Source of the DNA: an uncultured virus (IMG/VR IMGVR_UViG_3300021960_000064)
Lineage: Duplodnaviria > Heunggongvirae > Uroviricota > Caudoviricetes
Virus record (IMG/VR): IMGVR_UViG_3300021960_000064
DNA length: 64,000 nt
Strand: one strand, 5' to 3'
The position numbers and the translations under genes were made by a program. The notes under the pieces are model-generated. The model made no database searches. It was not told where the DNA came from and was given only the letters and a program-made list of their open reading frames with translations. This document shows, piece by piece, positions 10,131-43,003 of this stretch (its first letter is position 1; each line of letters opens with the position of its first letter).

Positions 10131-11648
10131 TTAATAATAACTTACTTTCTGTCTAGGATATAGTTCTTCTTCCTCATAATCGCTAGGTAGTTTGACGAAC
10201 CCACCTTGCCTAAATCTTAACAACGCTTGAGTAGTTGAATCTACTAAATCGTCGTGATCTCCAGCAGGGAAAGCAGCACACTCTTCTCTAACTTCGTTAG
10301 CCCACTTAGTATCTGGTGCCCATACCATTCCTGATTCAAATAATGGTGCAGCAGCATTCACTCTAGCTACCTTATCATTTCCCTTTGATGGAGTAAAGTT
10401 TTGTACTGGTATTCCTATGTTGCGTAATTCTTGTGTAAGTGGTAGTCCACTGGCTTTAGCTTCTATAATTACACAATCAGGTGTCCACTCATTGTATTGA
10501 TCTAAAGCTACACCTTTAAGTTCAGGGAAACTATATCTACCTTTTACACAATCTAACAAAATAATATGTGGACTTGTACCGCTATAAAACTCATCACCTA
10601 TTTTTCCTTCAGGGTAAAACACACCCCATGTAGTAATAGCTGAATAGTCTGCCATTTGACTTTTTAAAAATGCTGTGTCGTAACTTTGTATTAAGTAATC
10701 ACATCTTGGTGGTTTTTCTTTTTCCCACTCATTCCACCATTCACGTTTTATAAGTGCCCCTTCTTCTGACGTAGGGTTCTGCATGTATTGAGCGTGCCAC
10801 TTTGGTCCGCCACGTAAACTAGCTTTTACACTTTCTATTTCTTCTAGTGACCAAAACTCTGGCCATAAAGGTTTACCACTAGGCAATATAGCTGGTAGTT
10901 CTATAACTTCCCATTGATCTGCTTTTGGGTCTCGTGCTGCATCTTTTAATAATTTACCTGTTAGGTCATTGATGTTCCAGCGAGTCATCACTATAACAAT
11001 GGCACCTCCTGGCTGTAACCTCTGCCTTGGACCAGAAGTGTACCACTCGTAAGTATCTTCCATGGACTTTGGGTTCATAGCATCTTGTTCACTATGAGGG
11101 TCATCAATAATAAATAGGTCGGCTCCCCTTCCTGCTAACGCACCTCCGACACCAGCAGCATAGTACTCGCCCTTTAGTTTTGGATTACTCTTCATTTGAG
11201 TTTCCCATTTACCTGCTGCTTTTGAGTCTGGGTTTATTAATACATCAGGAAAAACTTTTTGAAAATCTTCCGTTAGCATTAAGTCACGAATCTTTCTACC
11301 AAACTTAACTGCTAAATCTGCGGTGTGAGTTGCTTGTAGTATTTTTAAATTAGGGTTACGACCTACTAAATACGCAGGAAAGTAATGAGAAGCAAACTCA
11401 CTTTTAGTGTGCCGAGGTGGCATGTTAATAATAAGCCTTTTGATTTTACCGTTAGCGATACGGTCAAACGCGTCTGCCATCTTTTTATGATGAGCACCAC
11501 CTATGAACGATGGCCATTGGCTTTTGACAAAGTTTAAAAAACTATCTTGAGAAGTTTCAATCTCCTCAATCTCTTTTAACCTTTCAGTAAGTTCTAAGTG
11601 TTCCTTGAGGACATCCTCAGGTAGCTGTTCTAATAGTTCTTTTTTCAA
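10131..11648 (-). CDS. terL: Terminase large subunit
   Basis: Walker A-like 'MPPRHTKS', 'GRGADLFIIDDP', 'MTRW', nuclease motifs 'SYDTA' and 'HDDLVDS'. Confidence 0.93.
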   Translation of the reverse strand: MKKELLEQLPEDVLKEHLELTERLKEIEEIETSQDSFLNFVKSQWPSFIGGAHHKKMADAFDRIANGKIKRLIINMPPRHTKSEFASHYFPAYLVGRNPNLKILQATHTADLAVKFGRKIRDLMLTEDFQKVFPDVLINPDSKAAGKWETQMKSNPKLKGEYYAAGVGGALAGRGADLFIIDDPHSEQDAMNPKSMEDTYEWYTSGPRQRLQPGGAIVIVMTRWNINDLTGKLLKDAARDPKADQWEVIELPAILPSGKPLWPEFWSLEEIESVKASLRGGPKWHAQYMQNPTSEEGALIKREWWNEWEKEKPPRCDYLIQSYDTAFLKSQMADYSAITTWGVFYPEGKIGDEFYSGTSPHIILLDCVKGRYSFPELKGVALDQYNEWTPDCVIIEAKASGLPLTQELRNIGIPVQNFTPSKGNDKVARVNAAAPLFESGMVWAPDTKWANEVREECAAFPAGDHDDLVDSTTQALLRFRQGGFVKLPSDYEEEELYPRQKVSYY

Positions 11649-14396: not shown

Positions 14397-14527
14397 TTGC
14401 CTTGTCCTCTGTATTTAGTACGCTTTTTATTTTTATTCGTACCTGCACCATGGCTGAGTCTTGAGTCGCCTATAGAAGTTTTCTTCTTGACGTGCGTAAT
14501 TTTTTCTTTAATCCACTGTTTCGGCAT
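14393..14527 (-). CDS. Small basic protein (44 aa, MPKQWIKEK...KTSIG...KYRGQGK), absent from ORF track
   Basis: Open frame ATG 14527 to TAA 14393; fills the gap between neighbours. Confidence 0.6.
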   Translation of the reverse strand: MPKQWIKEKITHVKKKTSIGDSRLSHGAGTNKNKKRTKYRGQGK

Positions 14528-14864
14528 TACGCATAAGTTTAAACTGTTTACGAGCAAGAACCAAATTTTTTCTATTTTGCATTATGAGAGCAGGGACCAC
14601 GGTCGACTTATAACCGTCTATGGGATGTGACCAAAACCACTCTGCATCAGGGTGGCTGATTTGTAGTTCTTGTGCCATGGACTCTAGTGCGTCGCGATCT
14701 GTCGAGGTATGACATTTGAACAGAACAGCGTCGTAGTGTTTTAATTGTAAGTAGAGTATGTCAATTAATTCTGTTGAGTATTTCAGTACAGGTATTTTAC
14801 CAGCGTCAAAACTTTTTAGGCTAAAAGGACAGACGTCTATTATGGATTCAAAGTATTCTCTCAT
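14508..14864 (-). CDS. Hypothetical protein, first gene of late operon
   Basis: 118 aa 'YFESIIDVCPFS...WFWSHP'. Confidence 0.6.
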   Translation of the reverse strand: MREYFESIIDVCPFSLKSFDAGKIPVLKYSTELIDILYLQLKHYDAVLFKCHTSTDRDALESMAQELQISHPDAEWFWSHPIDGYKSTVVPALIMQNRKNLVLARKQFKLMRNAETVD

Positions 14865-14903
14865 TCGTAAAAAAATTTTTGCAAAATATTTGCAACTAGG
14901 TCA

Positions 14904-14931
14904 ATGATAGGCGAAAAGCCGAAAAAGTAAA
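14904..14931 (-). promoter_or_regulatory. Putative promoter of packaging/head operon
   Basis: TTTACT-N16-TATCAT on minus strand upstream of 14864. Confidence 0.4.
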
Positions 14932-14993
14932 GTTTATATGTTATGAGCGTCCGAATCTTACTTGCATGCTGCCGTCGACAGTTGTGTGTCATA

Positions 14994-15252
14994 AAGGGGG
15001 GTGGGGGGTCTTCTCTGTGTCGCTCTGCGGCACTCTTGTCTGTTGTTCTGTCTTGTCTGTCTTGTCTGCGTTGTGGTCCAGCTCTGCTGGTCCGTGCGAG
15101 CGAAGCGAGCCAGTCATGCGTGCGTCAGCACGCCACCGTGCCTGGACCATCATCCAGGGGGGGGGGGGGGGGGGGGCGACTCCTAATGGATTCAGTAGTG
15201 GTGTGTGTGCGAGCGAAGCGAGCACCGAGCACGGACGTGACGACACACCGAC
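14994..15252. other. Non-coding TC/TG-saturated block 1 with G-runs; probable genome end/pac neighbourhood
   Basis: GGGGGGTGGGGGG, (TGTCT)n-like tract, GCGAGCGAAGCGAGC x2, G20 at 15157-15176; at the divergence point between late operon and plus-strand genes. Confidence 0.5.
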
Positions 15253-15257
15253 AAAAA

Positions 15258-15292
15258 AGTAAGTACTTACTAACTAAAAGTAAGTACTTACT
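15258..15292. repeat. Tandem 14-bp perfect palindromes AGTAAGTACTTACT (21-bp period)
   Basis: 15258-15271 and 15279-15292; third copy at 15893-15906. Confidence 0.9.
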
Positions 15293-15329
15293 AACCTAAA
15301 AAATAATAGTAAATAAAGTAAAAAAAGTC

Positions 15330-15358
15330 TAGGCGTATTAGTATATAAGTAGTATAAT
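15330..15358 (+). promoter_or_regulatory. Putative promoter of first plus-strand gene
   Basis: Perfect TATAAT at 15353-15358, AT-rich upstream tract, poor -35 (TAGGCG). Confidence 0.55.
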
Positions 15359-15425
15359 TTTTATATTAGCTACTAAAGGGCGGTACTAATAACTACTTAA
15401 CTAGCCCTAAATAAAAGGTAAAAAT

Positions 15426-15695
15426 ATGGCTACTAATAAAGCTAAAAACCTAAACCCTAGCGTAAAACCTAGCGTTACCCCTACTACTACTATTACGCCT
15501 AGTAATATAGCTAGTACTAACCCTAAACTTACTTTTATTAGCGGTAAAGCTAGGGCTACTCATAATAATACTAGGGCTAAAAGCGTAAACGGTTATACGT
15601 ACGCTAACGCCCTAAGTCACTACGCTACGCTAGGTTTTAAAAAGGTAGATTTAAACTACGATATTTTTAAAATTAAAAGCCTTAGTACTAGCTAA
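15426..15695 (+). CDS. Small basic early protein, paralog 1 (N.R.K...DLNYD family)
   Basis: 89 aa; AAGG RBS; terminator; highly similar to 16037..16264. Confidence 0.85.
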   Translation: MATNKAKNLNPSVKPSVTPTTTITPSNIASTNPKLTFISGKARATHNNTRAKSVNGYTYANALSHYATLGFKKVDLNYDIFKIKSLSTS

Positions 15696-15701
15696 CTAGG
15701 T

Positions 15702-15726
15702 AGGGGGGCGTAAGCCCCCTTTTTTT
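15702..15726 (+). terminator. Rho-independent terminator
   Basis: GGGGGC-GTAA-GCCCCC-TTTTTTT. Confidence 0.9.
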
Positions 15727-15739
15727 ATAAACTAAATAA

Positions 15740-15889
15740 TGATCATGATCTATGTTCCATGGTTGGGGGATGATGGTTCTTTGGTTCTTTGGTTTCTTCA
15801 TGTTCTTCAGATCGTGATCTGTGTCTTCTGTCTGTCTTGTCTTCGTTTGTGGTCCGCCGAAGGCGGACGATTCTTCGCGGACGCGAACA
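15740..15889. other. Non-coding TC/TG-saturated block 2
   Basis: GATCATGATC start, TTCTTTGGTT repeats, TGTCT tract, hairpin GTCCGCC-GAA-GGCGGAC; no TA from 15753 to 15894. Confidence 0.6.
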
Positions 15890-15892
15890 AAA

Positions 15893-15906
15893 AGTAAGTA
15901 CTTACT
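15893..15906. repeat. Third AGTAAGTACTTACT palindrome
   Basis: Same flanks (ACAAAA...AACCTAAAA) as the 15258-15300 copies. Confidence 0.9.
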
Positions 15907-15942
15907 AACCTAAAAAGATTTTAAATTAATTACCGATCATGC

Positions 15943-15971
15943 TTTACTTTACTTTAGATCGTTAGTATACT
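15943..15971 (+). promoter_or_regulatory. sigma70-like promoter with GATC at spacer position 9-12
   Basis: TTTACT-ttactttaGATCgttag-TATACT. Confidence 0.75.
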
Positions 15972-16036
15972 ACTAGTATAAAGTAAGTAAGGGCTCCGTC
16001 CTTTTAAAATTAGCTCACTTAATATAGGTAATATCT

Positions 16037-16264
16037 ATGGCTACTAATAAAGCTAAAAAAACTCAGTCTATCGCTCCTAGCGTTAGTACTGGTAAATTAA
16101 CCTTCGTCCCTGGTAAAGCTAGGGCGGATCATAATAACGCTCGTGCTAAAAGCGTTAATGGTTTAACCTACGATCAAGCGTTAGCTCATTATGCTACGCT
16201 CGGTTTTAAAAAGGTTGACCTTAACTACGATTTAAATAAAATTAAATCGCTCAAGTTAGCGTAA
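16037..16264 (+). CDS. Small basic early protein, paralog 2
   Basis: 75 aa; MATNKAK start; nearly identical core to 15426..15695. Confidence 0.85.
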   Translation: MATNKAKKTQSIAPSVSTGKLTFVPGKARADHNNARAKSVNGLTYDQALAHYATLGFKKVDLNYDLNKIKSLKLA

Positions 16265-16270
16265 GCTCAA

Positions 16271-16299
16271 AGGGGGGTCAATAGCCCCCCTCTTTTTTT
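16271..16299 (+). terminator. Rho-independent terminator
   Basis: AGGGGGG-tcaatag-CCCCCCT-CTTTTTTT. Confidence 0.85.
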
Positions 16300-16310
16300 A
16301 ATTTTAATTA

Positions 16311-16439
16311 GACCTGCATGGTCCATGCACCACGATCGGTGGATTGGGATTCTTTGGTTCTTTGGTTCTTGGACCACGATCGGTGGATCATGGTTCTTTG
16401 TCCATATGTTTTGTGCCTTGTGTCTCTGTCCGTGGTTTC
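16311..16439. other. Non-coding TC/TG-saturated block 3
   Basis: ACCACGATCGGTGGAT x2 (16329-16344, 16373-16388), TTCTTTGG repeats, several CATG/GATC; only one TA. Confidence 0.6.
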
Positions 16440-16696
16440 TATATAGGGAACTCTGGAGAGGTCTATGTCCTCATTAAAATCCAACACATGTTTTATCTCG
16501 ACTACACCACGAACCACCCACCACGTACCCTATTACCTCTTCTTAGCCAATAGGTCGCTAATAGCCTAGCCAATAACCATAATAGAAGGAGTAGTGGAGA
16601 GTCTTCAGTCCTTATGCCCTATTGGCATATTGGCTAAAGTGCTTGAAAATTGAAAAAAGATTTATAGTTTTTCCAGATTACTATAATAGAAATGGG

Positions 16697-17020
16697 TTAT
16701 TGAGCTTTAATATACCACGCTGGTAAGTCGTCAGTAGATATTTGAAGGACTTTTTCTTCATCAATAGTGTTAATAACTATCACCGAGGCAACGTCCACTT
16801 CTAAAGGTTCTTCTTGCTCGTTATCATTTAAAAGGTCAAATTCCCATTCGTTATATTCACCCCAAAACCTATCCTCAGCCACTATGGCTTGTTCCATGAG
16901 TTCGTGGCTACCTGTATATAATAGTTCTTTAGTGCCTAGTAGCTCTGTGACTTTTGCGGTAATAAGTTCACTGTCGTTCACCTCATTACCATTTATTACT
17001 TCTAGTTTAAACCAAATCAT
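16697..17020 (-). CDS. Hypothetical acidic protein
   Basis: 107 aa, coupled to upstream gene. Confidence 0.6.
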   Translation of the reverse strand: MIWFKLEVINGNEVNDSELITAKVTELLGTKELLYTGSHELMEQAIVAEDRFWGEYNEWEFDLLNDNEQEEPLEVDVASVIVINTIDEEKVLQISTDDLPAWYIKAQ

Positions 17021-18413: not shown

Positions 18414-18442
18414 ATAATAGGTATGATCATTTTCCGTGTAAA
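18414..18442 (-). promoter_or_regulatory. sigma70-like promoter with GATC at spacer position 9-12
   Basis: gactATCc-TTTACA-cggaaaatGATCatacc-TATTAT. Confidence 0.8.
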
Positions 18443-18453
18443 GGATAGTCATT

Positions 18454-18541
18454 AAAATATTTTAAAACGGTCAGACCGTTTGATGTAAAGGGGTAAAGGG
18501 TAGGTAGGGCTAGTTTAATCAACGCCTTAAAAACGCTCACA
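18454..18541. repeat. Dispersed non-coding element, copy 1 (GGGGTAAAGGGTAGG core)
   Basis: Shares core and flanks with 27002..27088. Confidence 0.7.
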
Positions 18542-18560
18542 TTAAGCCCTATATAACCGA

Positions 18561-18752
18561 TCATAACTTACCTTTATAGGAAGCCTTACGCCTTTTAGCA
18601 AGAACTGAGTCGTAACCTTGATCATAATCATGACCATAAGGTCCGTAAAAGTCTGAACCGTTTTTACGTTCGCGACCGTTAGTCGCATCTCTTACTCCGT
18701 AAGCAAAAGCGTTTTCTGCCTGTTGCTCTGGAGTGGGTTTATCATACATCAT
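18561..18752 (-). CDS. Hypothetical protein
   Basis: 63 aa; GGAGG RBS. Confidence 0.55.
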   Translation of the reverse strand: MMYDKPTPEQQAENAFAYGVRDATNGRERKNGSDFYGPYGHDYDQGYDSVLAKRRKASYKGKL

Positions 18753-22039: not shown

Positions 22040-22312
22040 TCAAACAATCTCAAGAGTCTTGACACGTTCAATGTCATATTTGAGATCTGTCATGGTATAC
22101 AACCCAGTAGCTATCGCTTCTTTGATTGTTTTACCACTCACTGCTTTAACACGCTCATTGTTGCTTTCAGCAGTTACTTTTTTCCCAGTCGCTTTGACTA
22201 CAGCTTCTGGGTCGTATTTGCCAAACTTCACTTTTGGTGTTACTTTGGCAACCGCACTTTGTTTCTTAGCAGAAACAAGTGAAGGTTTTTTAAGGGCTGT
22301 TGTTTTAGCCAT
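22040..22312 (-). CDS. Small basic protein, distant paralog 3 of the N.R.K...DLxYD family
   Basis: 'NNERVKAVSGKT..EA...G.....DLKYDI'; own promoter (22363-22391) and downstream hairpin (22002-22027). Confidence 0.7.
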   Translation of the reverse strand: MAKTTALKKPSLVSAKKQSAVAKVTPKVKFGKYDPEAVVKATGKKVTAESNNERVKAVSGKTIKEAIATGLYTMTDLKYDIERVKTLEIV

Positions 22313-23568: not shown

Positions 23569-23642
23569 TGCCTAGTGTGATAGTGAAGTTACTGGAGGAC
23601 AATAGTCGGACCTTCACTACCTCTTGCCAGTATCACTAGGCA
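23569..23642 (-). ncRNA. Structured RNA motif, copy A
   Basis: UGCCUAGUG/CACUAGGCA and GGUAGUGAAG/CUUCACUAUC stems, UGUCCUCCAGU loop; second copy at 39387..39455. Confidence 0.65.
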
Positions 23643-23794
23643 AATACTGTTTAACTTGCCGACTTTGCCAAACAAAATAGGTAGGTAGTCAAGCTAATAA
23701 ACGGAAAAACTTTCTAGGGGGGAAGTTTAACCCTTAACTACCTATTTATATTAAGCCTTAAATCTTAAAAGAAATAAAGGACAGTGGGGTAAAT

Positions 23795-23990
23795 AAAATA
23801 AAAGTCGTGGCGAGGATTTGGTGGCATTTATTTAGTCCTCATTAAGCAGTCGTGTCGACATTACCATACTGCACCACTAAGTTAAACTGCGTTTTATGGC
23901 GACTTGAGTTTCACACTTAGCCACTTATGGATTCTTCACCTCTTACAAAGTAGCGTTTTCCTTCTCGGCGACTTTCGGCTTACGCTTAAC
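23795..23990 (-). ncRNA. Candidate ~190-nt non-coding RNA
   Basis: AAAGUCG/CGACUUU terminal stem followed by U-rich tail, internal stems with G-U pairs, TTTACA box upstream, no ORF. Confidence 0.45.
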
Positions 23991-24036: not shown

Positions 24037-24744
24037 TTACTCAAAGTTACCCATGAGCCAAAATACAAGCAAGTATCTATCCCCTTCTTCAACAGGTAGT
24101 CCACGATGCATGTGGCTAAAACTAGGAAACATTAAAGCTGTACCGCTGGGTAAGGGGTCTACAATCCCTTTACGGTGAAACTCAGTTCCTCCACCTTTAT
24201 ACCCACTAGTATTCAGAGGCACCACAACACTAAGATCTGCAGACGTATCATGATGCCAAGCACCCTGTTGTTTTTTGGCTATGTTATAGTTAGCCAACTG
24301 TATACTCCCAGGACGCACGGAGTATCTTTGCCACAACGCCATAAATGCAGGGTTGAGGTAGTTAAGAGCTACTGACCACAGATTATCAAATAAGGGTGGG
24401 CAGTTATCGTGAAGAGTGATTTCTGGTATTTGACGTAAAAAATCTTCGTCAGAGTTAGGTTCAAAACCAAGATAATGTTCCATGTGTTCTATTTCATCTA
24501 ACATCATAGTGCAAAACTCTTGAGTAAATAAAGGCATCGTAAAAACATCTGGTAATACTTCTGTTACATATTCTTGTATAGGTGTAATGAGATCTTTTTG
24601 TCCTTCGTGTATTTCGTATTGTTCAATATCATTCTCGGAGTCTTGTACAAGGGCGAGGGTAGTTTTATCCACGAGCCACTCTCCCTGAACGCCTAGAAGC
24701 GAGTTTTTTAACCGATAAGGCATTATTTGTTTGATGTTTGACAT
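24037..24744 (-). CDS. 2OG-Fe(II) oxygenase (prolyl/lysyl-hydroxylase-like)
   Basis: 'WHHD...GGGTEF...HMHRGLPV..GDRY' HxD..H..R triad. Confidence 0.85.
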   Translation of the reverse strand: MSNIKQIMPYRLKNSLLGVQGEWLVDKTTLALVQDSENDIEQYEIHEGQKDLITPIQEYVTEVLPDVFTMPLFTQEFCTMMLDEIEHMEHYLGFEPNSDEDFLRQIPEITLHDNCPPLFDNLWSVALNYLNPAFMALWQRYSVRPGSIQLANYNIAKKQQGAWHHDTSADLSVVVPLNTSGYKGGGTEFHRKGIVDPLPSGTALMFPSFSHMHRGLPVEEGDRYLLVFWLMGNFE

Positions 24745-24916: not shown

Positions 24917-25501
24917 TCATATCCCTGACCTAAAAGTGAGGTTGACTCTTTCTTGAGCTAACTCTAAATCACTTACAGCGTGAGTAGAATACATTTGATT
25001 ATGACCGTCAAACATAATAACGTCGCCATGTTCTAAAATATAGTGTTTTTCATCTATTATAAAATTCTCTGTTATGGCGTCTATCTCACTGGTATTCGGT
25101 TGTTTTTTGATTGGGTTTTGATAAGTACGTTGTACAAAAACTCGAGGACCACCAAAAGATATAGAAACTACGACATCTTCTAAAGTAGGAACTGTGTCAG
25201 AATGATGCGGAATGCCTTTACCGTCTAGACCATAAAAACCACAGAGACAAAAATTAAATACGATGTCTCTTTTAAAATAACGTGAGGCTACATTCTCCGC
25301 AGCATACTTGATAAGCTCCATAGGATGTGTCCAAAGCTCAGGTTCATACAACTTACCAGCATAGTTAAAACTAGCATCTCCAAAACCACGTGTTGGTCTA
25401 CCTTTTACCATAGCACCGTCAAATAGTCTTTCTCTAGGAGCATCCCATTTATCTATTTTGTGGTCAAAGCCACCGAACAAACTTTTTCTATAGAATATCA
25501 T
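24917..25501 (-). CDS. AlkB-family 2OG-Fe(II) dioxygenase (likely start MIFYRKS)
   Basis: 'FNYAG...HHSD....SISFGGPR.F...LEHGD...HAV.....RVNLTFR'. Confidence 0.8.
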   Translation of the reverse strand: MIFYRKSLFGGFDHKIDKWDAPRERLFDGAMVKGRPTRGFGDASFNYAGKLYEPELWTHPMELIKYAAENVASRYFKRDIVFNFCLCGFYGLDGKGIPHHSDTVPTLEDVVVSISFGGPRVFVQRTYQNPIKKQPNTSEIDAITENFIIDEKHYILEHGDVIMFDGHNQMYSTHAVSDLELAQERVNLTFRSGI

Positions 25502-25976
25502 CGTCTTTTTCGTCAAAATCTTCACCTTCGATAATAGTGCCCATAGGTAATATGCCACCTGTATCGTGATAAATTTCTTTCATACGTTCTAGTATTTGAT
25601 CTTTGTTCATAGTCTCAACTTTATTGACTACAAGCTCACTACGATTAATATATAGACCTGCTGCCTTACCCCTAGCAACTTCTGCACCAACCGCAGCAGA
25701 CCACGCACCATTACGCATAGCCCCTTCTCTTATATCTTTTAAATCTGTGAGGTGAGTAGCTAAATCTAGACTCGCTTTTTTACTGGCTCTATTTTGTAAG
25801 GCTTGTATTTTTTCTTGTACTAATGGGTTCTCATCACTCGTTAACACGTAACCAGCTTTAGTTGCGTTCTTTTCACTGTAGCCTGCATCAATAGCAGCAT
25901 CTTTTTTAGACATGCCTTTAGCTACATTCTGTGCGAATTTTTCTTGTTTAGGAGTAAGTTTTTGTTTCTTTGTCAT
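25488..25976 (-). CDS. Terminase small subunit-like HTH protein
   Basis: 'LTPKQEKFAQ.......DAAIDAGYS...A...G..L'. Confidence 0.7.
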   Translation of the reverse strand: MTKKQKLTPKQEKFAQNVAKGMSKKDAAIDAGYSEKNATKAGYVLTSDENPLVQEKIQALQNRASKKASLDLATHLTDLKDIREGAMRNGAWSAAVGAEVARGKAAGLYINRSELVVNKVETMNKDQILERMKEIYHDTGGILPMGTIIEGEDFDEKDDDIL

Positions 25977-26750: not shown

Positions 26751-26934
26751 CTTTATAAAACCAGCTTGTAACTTCTACTTCTGATACCTGAATAAAATCA
26801 GGGTTGTATTTTTCATCTATTAAAACACACTCAGCGTTGATATCTTTTTCTTTCATAACTGTGCGAGCTTCGATATCACCACCAAAACTTCCGTAAGAAA
26901 TAGTGTACATTGTGTTTATTTTCTGGGCTTCCAT
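26710..26934 (-). CDS. Hypothetical protein
   Basis: 74 aa; AGGAG RBS; promoter at 26963-26991. Confidence 0.6.
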   Translation of the reverse strand: MEAQKINTMYTISYGSFGGDIEARTVMKEKDINAECVLIDEKYNPDFIQVSEVEVTSWFYKDEGGNYEHTPTRH

Positions 26935-26962
26935 ATATCTCCTATTTATATAATAAAGGTAT

Positions 26963-26991
26963 ATATTAATACTGATCTTATACGAAGTATA
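26963..26991 (-). promoter_or_regulatory. sigma70-like promoter with GATC at spacer position 9-12
   Basis: TATACT-tcgtataaGATCagtat-TAATAT. Confidence 0.6.
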
Positions 26992-27001
26992 TAAAAATCT
27001 A

Positions 27002-27088
27002 AAAATATTTAAGGCGTTTTAAGGCGTTGATGTATTAAGTAGGGGTAAAGGGTAGGGTATTTAAATCAAAGGCTTAAAAACGGTCACA
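27002..27088. repeat. Dispersed non-coding element, copy 2
   Basis: CGTTTTAAGGCGTTGAT ... GGGGTAAAGGGTAGG ... ATCAAAGGCTTAAAAACG. Confidence 0.7.
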
Positions 27089-27094
27089 AGGGCT

Positions 27095-27358
27095 TTAATT
27101 TACAGAGTCGGTATAAAAAGGTATTTTAAAAACTCTAGTAAATTGATACTTACTAGACCCTGTTTTACTCTTTAACGCTTTTACAACCGACCTAGCTATT
27201 TGATCTTTATGAATAATTAGCCAGTCATTTAAGTCATCTCCATGTATAGCTTCGGGATGTTTTTTATCTAGCCTGAGTAAGAGTCGAGCAGGTGTTCCAT
27301 CAACCACGTTCGGGTTATAGTAAACCATTTCCCAAATCGTTTCATACTGTGGGTTCAT
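27095..27358 (-). CDS. Hypothetical protein
   Basis: 87 aa coupled ORF. Confidence 0.55.
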   Translation of the reverse strand: MNPQYETIWEMVYYNPNVVDGTPARLLLRLDKKHPEAIHGDDLNDWLIIHKDQIARSVVKALKSKTGSSKYQFTRVFKIPFYTDSVN

Positions 27359-32549: not shown

Positions 32550-33195
32550 AGTAACACCATTTACATTTAAACTGGGAAGGTCTAGCAGGGAACTCCTCAG
32601 TCGTCGTCATTTCTACAGCCCTAGCGTTTAGTCTTTCACGCTTGGCGTTTACTGTTTCTTTATCGTATTGATACCTATCTAACTTACCATGGTCTAAATA
32701 CCACAGCTCAGTAGTTATAGTTTCTAACTCTGGTAGCCTTTTAAAAACTATAGAAGCATACAGCTCACACTGTTCTCTATGACCTTCTTGATTACCATCA
32801 TACCTACCTGTTTTAAAATCAATTACCCTAGCGTTTTTATCACCTTCAACATGAACAAAAGCATCTACTTTAGCTCTACCCCATGTATCGTGATCAAACC
32901 AACCTGTGGGTTCCCATTCAGTAGTAAAAGCCCAGTCACCTTCACAAAGTACATGCCCTTTTAAATGCATATCTTTTAATAGGTCAAAGGCTTCTTCAAA
33001 ATCCTGTAGGGCTTTAGGTATCTCATCATACCTACCCCTTATATATTCTTCACATTCTTTATGAATATCTTTACCTCTGTCCATGGCTTTATTGCCAGGT
33101 TCTTTTATTCTTTCTATGTACGCATACTCTGCTTTCTTTGGGCACCCTTCAAATGTTTTGAGTCTACTATAAGACCACTGTGGTATATTAGCCAT
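32512..33195 (-). CDS. PD-(D/E)xK exonuclease (Cas4/RecB-like)
   Basis: 'WSYSRLKTFEGCP', 'KVD...IDFKTG', 'QCELY', C-terminal CKWC..C. Confidence 0.85.
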   Translation of the reverse strand: MANIPQWSYSRLKTFEGCPKKAEYAYIERIKEPGNKAMDRGKDIHKECEEYIRGRYDEIPKALQDFEEAFDLLKDMHLKGHVLCEGDWAFTTEWEPTGWFDHDTWGRAKVDAFVHVEGDKNARVIDFKTGRYDGNQEGHREQCELYASIVFKRLPELETITTELWYLDHGKLDRYQYDKETVNAKRERLNARAVEMTTTEEFPARPSQFKCKWCYFGKQNICPSRHE

Positions 33196-34211
33196 TACTT
33201 TTCCTTGTTTTTGATCGCTTTATTTAGCCAGTCAAACCCAGCAGTGCACCAATCAGTAGCCTCACACCTTTGAACTTCAACCAACGCCTCTTCGTACTCT
33301 TCTTTCTTATAACAGTACCAAGCATCCTGCAGTGAACAGGCTACGTCGGTAAAAAAATCATCCGTAAATTCCATTTCTTGAAAAGGTTTACGGTCCAAAA
33401 AATTAACTAAATCTGTATCCCATGTAAAAGAATCTACTGACATCATAGGATAAGGATTAATAGATTTATTTTCGTATGGGTTAATACTTTCTTTCATATT
33501 GTAGTAATCAAAAGCATCCTCTGCTTCTAATTTAGCATGCATGTCCTCAAATACATCAGTGTATGCATGGAAACTATCACTTATTTGAGTATACTTACCC
33601 ACATGCAACATTAAAGCACTAGCCACATACTCATGTAACATAGACATATGAACTGCATTAGCACCAAACGTTCCCCAAATTATATCATTTGACCTATTAC
33701 TTACTGTCATTAACAACTCATCATCTCGTACTTTAAAATAGATAACAGTATTACAAGGAACATCAACACCTGCTCTATTTAAATCAACTAACGGATCCCA
33801 CATTTGAACAACGCAACGTCTATCGTTAGGATCTGCTTGTAATCTTTGAATAACTACTTCTATTTGATCACCGCCAAAGTGTTCACGCCACCTATAACCA
33901 TAGGCACCGTGTAAAACAACACCATCATCACTATATTCTTTCATGCGTTTATTGTATTTAACCACATAATCTAAATCGTTACGACCGCCAAGCATCCATA
34001 AACTTTCCATAAAATGGAAGAAAGGATTAGCTTTACGAATAGGTTCGAATAAAACTCTTTCAGTAGGATTATGATATACAGTAGCCACAGGACACGGAGC
34101 TTCTATAACTTGACCTACACGACTACCTTTGACATCATCTCTAAACTCATTGAGTACGTCTAGACCTCTTATAAAACCATCATTTACATTTCTACAATTA
34201 ATAACTAACAT
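33195..34211 (-). CDS. Thymidylate-synthase-family enzyme, probable dUMP hydroxymethylase
   Basis: 'GAYG.RW...DQ', catalytic 'PCN', 'RSNDIIWG...AN' (Asn at the dUMP-specificity position), 'H.Y'; modification-cluster context. Confidence 0.8.
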   Translation of the reverse strand: MLVINCRNVNDGFIRGLDVLNEFRDDVKGSRVGQVIEAPCPVATVYHNPTERVLFEPIRKANPFFHFMESLWMLGGRNDLDYVVKYNKRMKEYSDDGVVLHGAYGYRWREHFGGDQIEVVIQRLQADPNDRRCVVQMWDPLVDLNRAGVDVPCNTVIYFKVRDDELLMTVSNRSNDIIWGTFGANAVHMSMLHEYVASALMLHVGKYTQISDSFHAYTDVFEDMHAKLEAEDAFDYYNMKESINPYENKSINPYPMMSVDSFTWDTDLVNFLDRKPFQEMEFTDDFFTDVACSLQDAWYCYKKEEYEEALVEVQRCEATDWCTAGFDWLNKAIKNKEK

Positions 34212-34220
34212 TCATATCTC

Positions 34221-34994
34221 CTAAAATAGTTCACCGTTTTCAGCACCTTGTTTTAATGCTTTTTTCCACATAACTTTTACGTCCTTACGAATCGCACCAC
34301 CCCAAGCAGTTTTAGTTTCTTTTTCTACTACTGTTACTACCTCGGGGTGTAACTTAGCTAATAACTCTGCACCTTCGGACTGCACATCTAAAGTACGCCA
34401 CTCACTACAGCCACCAGCAGCATTAGAACTACCTTGACCTTGAGCATAGTAATAACTTATCTTACTAGGATATCCTTTTTTAAGAAGTTGTAAATTAATA
34501 TCAAAATCTTCCATGACTCTAGTTCTTGCTAACTCTACACCGTCAAACTTATCTAAGTTGTAGGCTAGTAACCTCATGTACCTTGTAGTTTCTACTGATA
34601 GAGCCTCAACTCTATTGTTGCCTTCCCTAGCACTTACGCCACAGTGAGCATAGTCATCAAGCCATACATCTAATAGCCCAAATAACGCAGGGTATTCCTC
34701 AGGTTCAAGGTATCTTAAATGCCAGTCGTTAGTAGCTTTACGAATATAGAAACGTAAGTCATCATCTAACATAACTATTTTATTGTCGTCAGTGTTGTCA
34801 TGAATAAACTTACGCTTAGTAGCTATATCATGAACGGTGTCATCACATACCATAATTTTACAATCATAAGCTGAGTATAAATCTTTCTCATGCTCGTCTA
34901 CTACTAGTGTTACCTCTTTGCGTAATTCTTCTGGAAAGAAAGACAAGGTTACTTGGCTGTCTGCCCTACCTCTTGTAGGAATAAAAATTCTCAT
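34221..34994 (-). CDS. GT-A glycosyltransferase (TET-associated/GREB1/JGT-like)
   Basis: 'IFIPTRGR', 'MLDDD', 'EDFD..LQ', 'NAAGGC'. Confidence 0.75.
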   Translation of the reverse strand: MRIFIPTRGRADSQVTLSFFPEELRKEVTLVVDEHEKDLYSAYDCKIMVCDDTVHDIATKRKFIHDNTDDNKIVMLDDDLRFYIRKATNDWHLRYLEPEEYPALFGLLDVWLDDYAHCGVSAREGNNRVEALSVETTRYMRLLAYNLDKFDGVELARTRVMEDFDINLQLLKKGYPSKISYYYAQGQGSSNAAGGCSEWRTLDVQSEGAELLAKLHPEVVTVVEKETKTAWGGAIRKDVKVMWKKALKQGAENGELF

Positions 34995-35839
34995 TTATTT
35001 ACCTTATATTTTGCACGTGGTCTGCCTTCACCCAAACGTGTACGTTCATATTTATCGAACTCGCAAAGGCAGTGTTCAATATCTCTCATTTCTAGTGGTA
35101 GCATATGCCCTTGTAAATATTCAGGGGAGCAATCTAGTAACACTTTCATCTCAAAATTTAATTGTGGCTTCTTAATCGTTTTATTAAGTTCTCTATGGTG
35201 TATTCTATTTAAGCCACGCTGAGCTCCAGGTCCAGGGTTAGCCCAAGTCATAATATCTTTAGCGTTTCTTAACCACTTAGTGTGACGTAAATCAGTCACT
35301 ACCTCGTAAGCCATGAACCCGCTAAACCCAGCGTGTTTTTGATACCCTTTCCATGTTTCTTCTAACGAATCTTTTATCATAGGTGGGTGGTGTTCATATA
35401 AAGGTGTGAGTATTTTATCTATAGTTTGTTCTATTTTAGTACCACCTAACGTGCCTGTCAACATGTACGCACCAGTATATACTTTTTCTTTTCTATCCAT
35501 TCTACCTTGCATTATAGCTTTTAAACGTTTAGGATTCCAATGCTCAGGAAAACCTAACTCTTCTAAAGTGTCTGGCCAATTAATTTGCCTAGCCATAGAC
35601 ATAGCAAAAGGTAGGTTAGGGTGGTCGGCATAAGGTTCTCGCCAGTTGACTCGTATCCATTCTGTAACTCTATCTAGTTCACGATATACATTACAAAAAC
35701 TATACTCAGTTAGTATGGCATCACTAGTCCACGGATAAGACACGCCATTTTGGCGACGTAGATATACAATATGACGTTCGTTTAAATAATTAAAAAACTT
35801 TTGTATTTCTTCTTGATTCATACTGCTTCCTTTACCCAC
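34991..35839 (-). CDS. aGPT-Pplase1 / 5hmdU DNA kinase helical domain protein (stand-alone)
   Basis: 'ERH.VY..R....PWT.D.IL..Y.FCNVYRELDR', 'GFMAYEVVTDL', 'GPGA.RGL', 'IEHCLCEFDKY'. Confidence 0.8.
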   Translation of the reverse strand: MGKGSSMNQEEIQKFFNYLNERHIVYLRRQNGVSYPWTSDAILTEYSFCNVYRELDRVTEWIRVNWREPYADHPNLPFAMSMARQINWPDTLEELGFPEHWNPKRLKAIMQGRMDRKEKVYTGAYMLTGTLGGTKIEQTIDKILTPLYEHHPPMIKDSLEETWKGYQKHAGFSGFMAYEVVTDLRHTKWLRNAKDIMTWANPGPGAQRGLNRIHHRELNKTIKKPQLNFEMKVLLDCSPEYLQGHMLPLEMRDIEHCLCEFDKYERTRLGEGRPRAKYKVNK

Positions 35840-36312
35840 CAGTTAGGTTTAGGTGTACATTTATTCCACTGGGCGTAATGCTTTTCGTTAATTAAATAAT
35901 TACGATAGGCTTTTACTGGGTCAGAGTCTTTGTACTGGTCGGGCATAGCTTGGGGCATGGGAGTAAGACCAATATCAGGCATACCTACAGGTGCTTGACA
36001 TAACTTATCATTAAGTTTAACAAAACTAAGGTGTTGCCTATCGTACCTAGTTTCGTATTCTTTACATAAAGCATAAAAATGATAGTAAAGCCACGTATAG
36101 TTTTGTACTGATTCCCTAGCCCATATAGTACAAGGGTGATTAAGATAGGCTTTTTTATAAATACCGTTAAGGTCACACCACTCCTCACCGTTATGTACAC
36201 GGTGGGCAGTTGAAAGCATTTGAGCACTTTCTAAAGGCATTTTGACTACTAGTTTATCTGGTAGACAGATGGCAGCTTTAGCTGGGTCTGTATTTACATA
36301 AAATATATTCAT
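35818..36312 (-). CDS. Pyrimidine-dimer DNA glycosylase (DenV-like) family protein
   Basis: 'MNIF...D...AA....DK.VVKM.LESAQMLS', 'NHPCT.W', 'AMP.QYK..D.V.AYR.Y'. Confidence 0.7.
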   Translation of the reverse strand: MNIFYVNTDPAKAAICLPDKLVVKMPLESAQMLSTAHRVHNGEEWCDLNGIYKKAYLNHPCTIWARESVQNYTWLYYHFYALCKEYETRYDRQHLSFVKLNDKLCQAPVGMPDIGLTPMPQAMPDQYKDSDPVKAYRNYLINEKHYAQWNKCTPKPNWWVKEAV

Positions 36313-41110: not shown

Positions 41111-41217
41111 CTTGTTTCTTTTATCTTAAAGTTGGGCTACTTTTTACAGTAGCCCCATATTCACGGGAGATAACTATGAATAATTAATTACCTATATATA
41201 AATAATTAAGTAAATAA

Positions 41218-41246
41218 ACTATACGCCTGATGTTATAAAAAATAAA
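41218..41246 (-). promoter_or_regulatory. sigma70-like promoter of replication operon, CATC at spacer position 9-12
   Basis: TTTATT-ttttataaCATCaggcg-TATAGT. Confidence 0.65.
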
Positions 41247-41557
41247 GCCCTATGTTTATTTATAACCTATCACTATATAGGGAGATAGAAATTAAATATT
41301 TTTTAAAACGCAAAAGTAAGACTAATAGCCAATAGCGGTAATAGGGTTCGTGTAACGTTATATATTTAAAGACGTCAAAGGGTATTAGCAAAACCTATTG
41401 ACTACCTATTGGCATAAAACACGTAATAGTATTTTAGAATTAAGTAGAAGTAGTTTATAGTTATATATAAGTAAGGGTAGTAAGTCCTGGACAAATAGAT
41501 CAGGCTACAACGGTTAAGTTACGGCTTAACACCCTTACTTACTAAGAAACGAGACAA

Positions 41558-43003
41558 ATGACAGAATTTATATTTAAGACAGATCCTTATGATCATCAAC
41601 GCCAAGCCTTAACTGAGTCTTGTGATAAAGAAGAGTATGCTCTTTTTATGGAGATGGGTTGTGGTAAATCTAAAGTAGCTATAGATAACTTTGTACATCT
41701 GTATGGTCAAGCTAAAGTATATAATGTTTTAATTGTAGCCCCTAAAGGTGTTTATAATAATTGGATAGCTAAAGAAATACCATCACACATGCCAGACCAT
41801 GTTACACACGACATAGTAAAGTGGCAAAGTAATCATACTAAGAAATTTGAAAGAGAAATGTCTAAACTTTTTGAGTTTGACCATAAACTAAAAATCCTTG
41901 TTATGAATATAGATGCCTTTAGTACTAAAAAAGGTTGTCAATATGCTAGTAGGTTTATACAACATAATAAAACTATGTTTATAATCGACGAAAGCACAAC
42001 TATAAAAAACCCTGAAGCAAAACGCACAGCTAATTGTGTAAGGTTAGGTAAGTATGCACATTACAAAAGAATCTTAACAGGTTCACCTATCACTAAAAGT
42101 CCACTAGATTTATATAGTCAGTGTATGTTTTTAGATCCAGCAATATTAGGCTTTAGTAGTTTTTATTCTTTCCGTGCAAGATATGCAGACTTAGTAGAAA
42201 AACGTGGACACGGTAGAACTTTTAAGTTTGTTGCAGGATATAAAAATTTAGAAGAACTTAATGAAACTTTAGAAAAGTTTAGCCATAGAGTTTTAAAGAA
42301 AGACTGTTTAGATCTACCTGAAAAAGTTTATATGCGTAGAGAAATACAAATGACACCTGATCAAGCTAAAGCATATAAAGAATTACAAAACTTTTCAGTG
42401 ACACTTTTAAAAAATTCTAAAACTGTAACCATAAACCATGTAATAACGCAAATCATACGTTTGCATCAGATTTCATGTGGATTCACAGTAACCGATGACG
42501 GAGTTACTACCGAAATATCTTCTCAGAGGCTTCCAGAATTGCTCTCTATTATAGAAGAAACTGATGGAAAGATGATTATTTGGGCAAACTACAGATATGA
42601 CATACAACGTATAGAAAAAACCTTAAAAGAACTTTATGGTAATAATTCAGTAGGAACTTACTACGGTGGAGTTGAACAAGAAGAACGTGAAAGGGTAATT
42701 GAAGAGTTTCAAAACCCAGACAGTCCTCTTAGATTTTTTGTAGGTAATACTCAGACTGGTGGTTACGGTATAACATTGACTGCTGCTAGTACGGTGGTGT
42801 ATTACAGTAACAACTATGATTTAGAAAAACGTCTACAATCAGAAGACCGTGCTCATCGTATAGGTCAAACTAATAAAGTTACTTACATAGATATTGTTTG
42901 TGAAAAAACAGTAGATGAAAAAATAGTAAAAGCATTAAGGAAGAAACAATCTATTGCTAGTTTAGTTCTAGGTGAAGATCGTATTACTGACTGGTTAGTC
43001 TAG
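41558..43003 (+). CDS. SNF2-family (SF2) helicase
   Basis: 'MEMGCGKS', 'IIDES', 'LTGSP', 'QSEDRAHRIGQ'. Confidence 0.92.
   Translation: MTEFIFKTDPYDHQRQALTESCDKEEYALFMEMGCGKSKVAIDNFVHLYGQAKVYNVLIVAPKGVYNNWIAKEIPSHMPDHVTHDIVKWQSNHTKKFEREMSKLFEFDHKLKILVMNIDAFSTKKGCQYASRFIQHNKTMFIIDESTTIKNPEAKRTANCVRLGKYAHYKRILTGSPITKSPLDLYSQCMFLDPAILGFSSFYSFRARYADLVEKRGHGRTFKFVAGYKNLEELNETLEKFSHRVLKKDCLDLPEKVYMRREIQMTPDQAKAYKELQNFSVTLLKNSKTVTINHVITQIIRLHQISCGFTVTDDGVTTEISSQRLPELLSIIEETDGKMIIWANYRYDIQRIEKTLKELYGNNSVGTYYGGVEQEERERVIEEFQNPDSPLRFFVGNTQTGGYGITLTAASTVVYYSNNYDLEKRLQSEDRAHRIGQTNKVTYIDIVCEKTVDEKIVKALRKKQSIASLVLGEDRITDWLV

Follow-up and report, generated by a model that had tools for sequence, protein, structure and literature searches.

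An entire small transcription unit in the genome of an uncultured phage has been almost completely cleared, on both strands, of thymines that stand before G or C. The unit, called unit 1 or the island here, occupies positions 15253 to 15739 (+ strand) of a stretch of 64,000 nucleotides (nt) from IMG/VR virus record IMGVR_UViG_3300021960_000064 (Caudoviricetes), and this whole stretch is referred to below as the window. T before G or C (TG or TC) is abbreviated as TS, and its reverse complement (CA or GA) as SA. The purge is strand-symmetric, as the set TS/SA is closed under reverse complement, it coincides with a complete unit of putative operator, promoter, gene, and terminator, it is kept in strongly diverged relatives, and the same genome encodes a 5-hydroxymethyldeoxyuridine (5-hmdU) DNA kinase. 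The best-supported explanation of the purge is that the unit is kept free of modifiable T.

It is clear from the counts that the depletion is real, extreme, and conserved. The 487 nt of the island (A 194, T 137, C 84, and G 72; 32% GC) contain 8 TS/SA dinucleotides (TC 3, TG 1, GA 2, and CA 2), whereas 105.8 are expected from composition, and 10,000 mononucleotide shuffles of the island gave a mean of 106.0 with a standard deviation (sd) of 7.6 and a minimum of 71. A preliminary description of this DNA had counted 8 such dinucleotides against something on the order of 100, and our recount reproduces that figure, as it does the abrupt boundary reported there, with the final TS/SA on the left at 15252 and the initial one on the right at 15740. 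Taking both strands together, T precedes G or C in 8 of 331 cases (2.4%) in the island, compared with 35.7% in the window outside it. The island contains every one of the five longest TS/SA-free runs of the window (133, 99, 80, 76, and 56 nt), the longest run outside it being 50 nt, and 200-nt segments hold 1 to 7 TS/SA in the island compared with a lowest value of 17 elsewhere and a window mean of 44.6. TC/GA and TG/CA are purged equally, while the remaining dinucleotides of the island are not depleted except for AT (0.53), and TA (1.82) and CT (1.99) are enriched.

The purge extends to the choice of codons and of amino acids. The eight remaining sites are a TC at 15328 upstream of the gene, the TG of the start codon, the CA of two His codons, the TC at the junction directly before each of these, and the GA of two Asp codons. 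Five of them (ATG, two His, and two Asp) are forced by the genetic code, as had been proposed, and five is also the minimum that dynamic programming finds across every synonymous coding of the 89-amino-acid (aa) protein; the actual coding sequence (CDS), 15426-15695, has seven, both junction TC being avoidable. A synonymous-codon null drawn from the codon usage of the 41 long open reading frames (ORFs) of the window gave 48.2 ± 4.9 for this CDS, with a minimum of 29 in 5,000 samples. On either side of it, the 173 nt before the ATG hold 1 TS/SA versus 31.1 expected, and the 44 nt past the stop codon hold none versus 10.4 expected. Codon and composition nulls had been suggested as a check on the preliminary description, and neither accounts for the depletion. 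Serine is encoded by AGC or AGT in all 10 cases, and the protein lacks Glu, Gln, Cys, and Trp; residues that are impossible without TS/SA (M, H, Q, D, E, C, and W) make up 5.6% of the protein versus 23.6% in the 41 long ORFs, which bears out the earlier suspicion that the amino-acid content itself is constrained. Because TS and SA are reverse complements of each other and non-transcribed DNA is purged along with the gene, we infer that the responsible agent reads double-stranded DNA for a T-S step on either strand. An obvious candidate for such a reader is the kinase that the phage itself encodes.

The limits of the purge are those of a self-contained unit. At its upstream edge (15258-15292), the island carries two exact copies of the perfect palindrome GTAAGTACTTAC (15259-15270 and 15280-15291), which by their sequence and position form a putative operator. 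The two copies can together form a hairpin (-17.9 kcal/mol, z -4.9), a third copy is found at 15894-15905 ahead of the next unit downstream (unit 2), and the palindrome likewise marks the island edge in six relatives (L002, L006, L008, L011, L016, and L021; labels beginning with G or L are our own designations for related records and loci). The palindrome AGTAAGTACTTACT is a candidate binding target for the 89-aa protein and for its 75-aa paralog encoded in unit 2. A putative sigma-70-type promoter was read from the sequence at 15330-15370 (+), with TATAAT at 15353-15358 and no canonical -35 element. As TTGACA contains TG, GA, and CA, a canonical -35 is impossible in TS-free DNA; at the same position, the relatives have TTTACT, followed after 16-18 nt by TATAAT or TATACT, and this TTTACT is the closest TS-free approximation of TTGACA, which we count in favor of the interpretation given below. 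A tally of TTGAC-type versus TTTAC-type promoters across genomes yielded small counts that are confounded by composition. A hairpin in the 5' untranslated region of unit 1 is no better than in shuffles (z -0.02). The gene itself (15426-15695, +, from the ORF list) encodes the long paralog of the family, a basic protein with a predicted isoelectric point of 10.3, and is followed by an intrinsic terminator at 15702-15728 (+) that was found by a terminator scan and has an 8-bp stem with 6 GC pairs, a 4-nt loop, and a T run (fold -16 kcal/mol). Short contigs from RNA libraries (4 of 4 libraries) cover parts of 15338-16635, and one of them spans 15418-15626 without a mismatch, which we count as weak support for the same interpretation; these contigs leave 14400-15337 and 16636-17000 uncovered, and at a depth of ~2 they say nothing about expression or a lack of it.

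A TS-poor island is present in 21 of the 26 loci of the small gene that we collected. The five loci without one are L010, which stops 345 nt past the small gene, L012, L022, L024, and L025. The last of these belongs to the genome G006 (which also includes L150), where a run of N at 10197-10206 occupies the expected place of unit 1, between the block with the G-rich motif and the palindrome of unit 2, and the region seems to be hard to assemble. Twelve island cores of 266-633 nt contain 6-11 TS/SA versus 59-136 expected. Their DNA identity to the window goes down to ~61% (~39% divergence), and among the positions that differ between pairs of cores, 1-7 fall in TS/SA versus 13-64 expected. All 10 unit-1 genes of different lineages are depleted in both halves of the set, with TS at 1-8 versus 16-20 expected and SA at 3-11 versus 21-31 expected. 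The lineage of L011, L013, L016, and L023 has its island gene in the opposite orientation with respect to the second paralog, yet keeps the purge. Since the depletion is maintained at ~61% DNA identity and in either orientation, selection must maintain it. Both paralog types are older than the split of the island lineages. An apparent recombinant in L005 (2801-3231) joins a CDS of the short-paralog type to an upstream region and 5' leader that almost match those of unit 1 in the window, and it is TS-free in the upstream part only. The sole complete contig with its ends at the island locus (G003) wraps around, with ends that are 90-94% identical and do not represent a physical end, and this degree of overlap indicates high microdiversity. 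It lends no support to the suggestion in the preliminary description that the unit is among the first DNA to enter the cell. Many IMG/VR contigs break near the locus, and poly-G, repeats, and microdiversity explain these breaks as well as physical ends would.

The window comes from an uncultured, podovirus-like phage of the marine and estuarine HTVC023P type. Its large terminase subunit (TerL) shares 55-62% identity with those of the Pelagibacter phages HTVC027P and HTVC023P, 023Pt_psg01, and DSL-LC04, and DNA of the window is present in both estuarine and marine metagenomes and viromes. Next to the DNA polymerase (PolA), the window carries a thymidine-hypermodification cassette (33195-36312, -) that was recognized by Pfam and PHROG matches. 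It consists of a thymidylate-synthase homolog that is a candidate dUMP hydroxymethylase (33195-34211; PF00303, E 2e-21; phrog_5131, E 4e-117), a TAGT-like glycosyltransferase (34221-34994; PF20691, E 4.6e-18), the 5-hmdU DNA kinase (34991-35839; PF18723, E 4.4e-45, 154.7 bits versus a cut-off of 25), and a Pyr_excise-like protein (35818-36312; PF03013, E 2.5e-10), all on the - strand. The best match of the kinase in Pseudomonas phage M6 is 41.7% identical over 98% of the length. Lee and colleagues reportedly described, in 2018 and 2021, a 5-hmdU route of thymidine hypermodification that involves a dUMP hydroxymethylase, a 5-hmdU DNA kinase, and a phosphate-replacing transferase. Among the genes of the window's cassette, neither Pfam nor PHROGs shows a family of such transferases (AADT/DADT, formerly aGPT-Pplase2), and the TAGT-like or the Pyr_excise-like protein could be the partner enzyme of the kinase. 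A hypermodification gene pair has already been noted in clades V, VIII, and IX of the HTVC023P-type pelagiphages (PMC9599517), which belong to the same phage group and carry the cassette at the same place next to PolA. That paper covers the hypermodification genes, and its passages on these subjects mention neither the depleted region nor the small gene family. The window also has two genes of the 2OG-Fe(II) oxygenase type (24037-24744 and 24917-25558, -) beside a terminase-small-subunit-like ORF (25488-25976); according to the same paper, 2OG-Fe(II) oxygenases are frequent in this phage type (PMC9599517).

The kinase is encoded in every island-bearing record that includes enough of the genome, namely the window, G002, G003, G004, G005, G017, and G020, while the island-bearing fragments G018, G019, and G021 do not span the kinase region. 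Conversely, none of the four whole genomes that lack the kinase (HTVC027P, G009, G011, and G012) has an island, the lowest observed/expected ratios in them being 0.65-0.73. A comparison with relatives that lack the modification genes had been proposed as a check, and it does not refute the idea, though none of these four genomes has a copy of the small gene. Three further kinase-negative phages, HTVC023P, DSL-LC04, and 023Pt_psg01, have no island within 10 kb of TerL. In the island subclade, the long ORFs are themselves mildly depleted, with TS observed/expected ratios of 0.76-0.94 versus 1.05-1.07 in kinase-negative genomes. Two relatives pair the kinase with other enzymes, a methyltransferase in G008 (L120, 13362-14201) and a GT4-like glycosyltransferase in G010 (L122, 1252-2571), and these partners suggest that the final thymine modifications may differ within the HTVC023P type.

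Our interpretation of these data is that the DNA-modifying enzymes of the phage do not see the island, a cassette that the host RNA polymerase and operator-binding proteins can read, and we give this about an even chance of being correct. In such a phage, T would be swapped for 5-hydroxymethyluracil (5hmU) during replication, and the kinase cassette would phosphorylate, and then further decorate, a subset of the 5hmU bases, this subset being T before G or C as in phages with homologous kinases. A TS-free stretch would offer no substrate to the kinase and would remain plain DNA (T or 5hmU) regardless of how the remainder of the genome is modified. With an ordinary major groove, it would be usable by the sigma-70 RNA polymerase of the host and by a factor that binds the palindromes, and the small protein would be made from a fully modified incoming genome and would escape a later, modification-driven shut-off. 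By analogy with its homologs, and with the local purge as indirect support, the kinase of this phage probably acts at TS, and by analogy with in vitro systems, the modification would probably block host transcription; the island gene would be expressed early or constitutively, and its product would presumably have a regulatory role. A more ambitious form of the idea seems possible to us but somewhat short of even, namely that one regulatory gene forms an island of plain DNA in a hypermodified genome, bracketed by maximally modifiable insulators, so that its small, basic, and possibly operator-binding product is made regardless of the modification state and sets the infection programme.

Several points weigh against this interpretation. 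There is no island in eight kinase-bearing genomes, comprising six cultured phages (M6, PaMx11, Pam3, SH-Ab 15599, RHph_I72, and, for the first 60 of its 63.8 kb, Sonora) and two relatives (G008 and G010), and the island is therefore the solution of one lineage rather than a general need. All islands occur in one subclade with TerL proteins that are 87-89% identical, so the co-occurrence of island and kinase does not rest on phylogenetically independent cases, and within this subclade, the 62%-complete G007 has the full cassette along with a divergent small gene that is undepleted (density 0.18). The TS specificity is borrowed from kinases that are ~39-42% identical. For promoter recognition, a TS-free promoter would suffice, and the published in vitro data leave the purge of both strands of the coding region and terminator unexplained. 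As no phage RNA polymerase was identified among the window ORFs of at least 150 aa, the rest of the modified genome must somehow use the host enzyme. A consensus scan reported no promoter in unit 1, and the contigs from the RNA libraries are shallow (depth ~2) and could represent DNA carry-over. The proposal in the preliminary description that the unit is kept free of hypermodified T for the sake of the host RNA polymerase is thus upheld in part: the symmetric purge of both strands, the kinase cassette, and the published TS context support it, but it applies to one lineage only. One further observation fits the avoidance of damage better than it fits promoter recognition: single sites matter on each of the two strands, the non-template one included, and in the terminator too.

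Avoidance of damage would be the purpose of the island if host type IV nucleases or DNA glycosylases attacked hypermodified T, as a TS-free unit could then be neither nicked nor cut internally on either strand and would stay transcribable long enough for a counter-defence or take-over protein to be made. This is consistent with a self-contained unit that has its own promoter and terminator and whose flanks rank among the most TS-dense parts of the window, a feature that is conserved in relatives; these flanks might slow exonucleases, and the two explanations could act together. We nonetheless regard it as unlikely, since a host defence of this type is not known for the phage, which is uncultured, the protein resembles no known anti-restriction protein and belongs to no family, other hypermodifying phages have no islands, and a cut genome would be lost even with one gene surviving unless DNA entry were stepwise. 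A different reader or writer of double-stranded T-S or S-A, such as an adenine or guanine modification at SA or GA or a phage or host nuclease whose motif the unit avoids, would leave the same footprint, because sequence alone cannot separate T before S from A after S, and motif-specific modification of another base does exist, as described for dPreQ0 at GA in phage iggy (PMC10484667). To this we assign a low probability: a GA-only motif fails as TC/GA and TG/CA are equally purged, a scan of the 44 window ORFs of at least 150 aa found the thymine cassette but no second base-modification system, and TS is the exact published context of the kinase-dependent modification.

Lower still in our estimate is a need for easy melting, in which the island would belong to an origin of replication or to an unwinding element: charged adducts would stabilize the duplex, and an AT-rich stretch without them would open readily where it lies between GC-rich hairpins and clusters of GATC. 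The 32% GC of the island between hairpin-carrying flanks of 48-63% GC fits this, as do the roughly seven-fold enrichment of GATC beside the island and the promoter-like CTATATAGGGA with its CCAATAG/TAATAG repeats 700 nt downstream. However, easy melting would not demand that almost every single site be removed, or that a conserved gene change its amino-acid content to this end, and the purge has the same limits as the unit that runs from promoter to terminator. The idea that an early gene avoids restriction sites in general would be attractive in that GATC, TCGA, TGCA, CATG, and many 6-bp sites are impossible in TS-free DNA, and GATC is indeed missing from the island, but we hold it to be very improbable. 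Rather than being depleted in restriction-type sites, the island is richer than other 487-nt segments of the window in palindromic 4-mers (42 versus 26.9 ± 6.0) and 6-mers (14 versus 6.4 ± 3.1), the commonest being CTAG (11 copies), GTAC (6), AGCT (5), and AGTACT (4), and this enrichment rules such avoidance out as the general cause; 12 of the 16 possible 4-bp palindromes and 34 of the 64 possible 6-bp palindromes are compatible with the purge. Finally, an AT-rich unit might be suspected of owing its depletion to composition, to codon bias, to mutation pressure, or to selection at the level of the mRNA (for instance, avoidance of an endoribonuclease), the more so as unit 2 also uses many T-ending codons, but this is almost certainly wrong. 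The shuffle and synonymous-codon nulls fail by 8-13 sd and the depletion persists across ~39% DNA divergence, which excludes composition, codon bias, and mutation pressure, while selection on the mRNA is excluded by the symmetric purge of upstream, non-transcribed DNA and of inverted copies. The paralog 300 nt away is also treated differently.

The 89-aa protein has no Pfam or PHROG family, and a tblastn search against 50,697 phage records gave no match, while homologs recur in IMG/VR contigs. A profile built from 25 family members retrieved 34 family representatives among 1.84 billion proteins, none of which has a Pfam family. The AlphaFold2 model has a mean predicted local distance difference test score of 84.6 and is confident for residues 21-89. 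At E ≤ 0.001, Foldseek found no match to the model in the PDB or BFVD, a sequence-profile search of the PDB gave a best E of 0.65, and a search of the ESM Atlas gave nothing usable. When residues 43-89 were aligned by VIA-align with the winged helices of MecI, BlaI, ArgR-N, and MCM-C, the similarity was weak (Z 2.9-3.6), the best row overall reaching Z 5.0. A homodimer prediction scored 0.00, which weighs neither way on binding. The small protein is possibly a DNA-binding regulator, and that it binds the palindromic operator is a guess. The conserved module of the small protein (~...AxHN..R.K...GKTV..AL....DLxYD..xGfl) is repeated in tandem, two or three times, in some family representatives of 275-352 aa (P0040, P0049, P0051, and P0052), which have no Pfam family either.

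The DNA around the island has the opposite character. Hairpin-rich, GC-rich blocks (48-63% GC) on both sides of it are among the five most TS/SA-dense regions of the window. The left flank (14990-15252, 63% GC) has 79 TS/SA versus 61.2 expected, and it includes a conserved G-rich motif, ATAAGGGGGGTGGGGGGT, at 14993-15010, which is also present in all of the lineages compared (L002, L003, G003, and G006), and a run of 20 G at 15157-15176, at which the IMG/VR contig L001 ends. The spacer between the two units (15740-15890) has 54 TS/SA versus 37.4 expected, 4 GATC sites, and a hairpin, GTCCGCC-GAA-GGCGGAC, at 15852-15868, and equivalent TS-dense spacers are found in L002-L004. The right flank (16291-16460) has 51 versus 41.5 expected and contains CCACGATCGGTGGAT twice, at ~16328 and 16374. 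From 15740 to 16460, there are 11 GATC sites in 721 nt (15.3/kb versus 2.19/kb window-wide), and GATC-rich spacers also flank the units in L002, L003, G003, and G006.

Unit 2 (15891-16291, +) is half depleted, with 45 TS/SA versus 91.9 expected over 15891-16290. It has a promoter-like TTTACT-17-TATACT at 15943-15971 (+, promoter scan), the CDS of the 75-aa short paralog at 16037-16264 (+, ORF list), and a terminator at 16271-16291 (+, terminator scan). The CDS holds 29 TS/SA versus 44.2 ± 4.2 in the synonymous null and a possible minimum of 10, and the depletion is confined to one strand: TS on the coding strand is at expectation (20 versus 19.1), whereas SA is at 9 versus 24.5 ± 3.1. The unit-2 genes of L002, L003, and L016 show the same depletion of SA only, that is, of TS on the template strand. 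The asymmetry may reflect a constraint on the template strand related to transcription, or codon bias; genome-wide avoidance of TS on the template strand was not seen in long ORFs. The preliminary description had contrasted a clean copy in unit 1 with a modifiable copy in unit 2. The paralog does keep coding-strand TC and TG at expectation, but the contrast is too simple given that the paralog is itself depleted of GA and CA.

The gene family has a third, distant member among the early genes (22046-22312, -; hmmsearch E 2.1e-8), an internal control that is not depleted, with a TS/SA density of 0.247 (TS 30 versus 21.0 expected and SA 38 versus 31.1 expected); it is kept in G002, G003, G005, G006, G017, and G020. 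Four intergenic regions that probably bear promoters are partly depleted (observed/expected 0.41-0.46), at 18431-18610, 23611-23840, 26911-27200, and 41111-41560, and no region below 0.5 was found in HTVC027P, G008-G012, or M6. Some of these partly depleted regions share G-rich motifs such as GGGGTAAAGGGTAGG. The element CTATATAGGGA, which has the look of a phage-type promoter, occurs at 16439-16449 and 41273-41283, and at both places it is followed by repeats of the CCAATAG/TAATAG type. Its second copy is upstream of the helicase gene at 41558, the only other + strand gene, and contigs from the RNA libraries cover 16485-16635, just past the first copy. The element could be a promoter, a small RNA, or part of an origin.

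Hypermodification of phage DNA is usually discussed as a shield against host nucleases. The locus described here provides evolutionary evidence that owes nothing to biochemistry and singles out T before G or C as the context that matters in a lineage of kinase-bearing marine phages, as selection clears TS from one whole gene unit even at a cost to the amino-acid repertoire of its protein. If our interpretation is correct, base modification in phages would also be a cis-regulatory layer in addition to an armour against nucleases, and local purges of a motif would reveal, from sequence alone and across uncultured viruses, which contexts unknown DNA-modifying enzymes act on. A scan for motif-free islands could accordingly reveal the target motifs of unknown DNA modifications in such viruses. 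The 487-bp unit, set against a synonymously recoded version, is also a compact test system for how thymine hypermodification affects bacterial transcription, the binding of repressors, and defences that depend on the modification.

The closest known systems are phages that share the thymidylate-synthase homolog and the 5-hmdU DNA kinase with the window. In M6, ViI, and phiW-14, according to the relevant passages of PMC6449724, TG and TC are enriched in restriction-resistant sites and the kinase is proposed as the source of specificity; in Acinetobacter phage SH-Ab 15599, a passage of PMC13458397 gives alpha-dapT a preference for TG, followed by TC, with TT and TA seldom carrying it. The preferred context in these phages is made up of the dinucleotides that are purged from the island. 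It was inferred there from restriction digests, whereas the evidence from the window is an evolutionary footprint of local avoidance, and the partner enzymes of the window (TAGT-like and Pyr_excise-like) differ from those of the four phages. The mechanism that we assume is supplied by in vitro work summarized in the introduction of PMC11550810, in which bulky 5-substituents block promoter-bound bacterial RNA polymerase, 5hmU enhances transcription, and phosphorylation by 5-HMUDK turns transcription off, so that kinase action or bulky groups stop the bacterial enzyme and plain 5hmU does not. That work used synthetic templates with every T modified, and a natural genome segment built to evade the switch is not described in the introduction of the paper. 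We found no description of a TS-free island of this kind in the literature searched, although subscription-only papers and supplements may hold one. Older parallels are the first-step-transfer region of T5, which has no EcoRI sites, and gene 0.3 of T7 at the leading end of the genome. The likeness lies in a small early unit that is kept clear of a vulnerable motif so that the first protein is made. A position at the leading end is a feature of the T5 and T7 systems, and the two phages avoid the restriction sites of their hosts, whereas the motif avoided in the window would, on the best reading, be the target of the phage's own modifying enzyme, in a unit where restriction-type palindromes are enriched.

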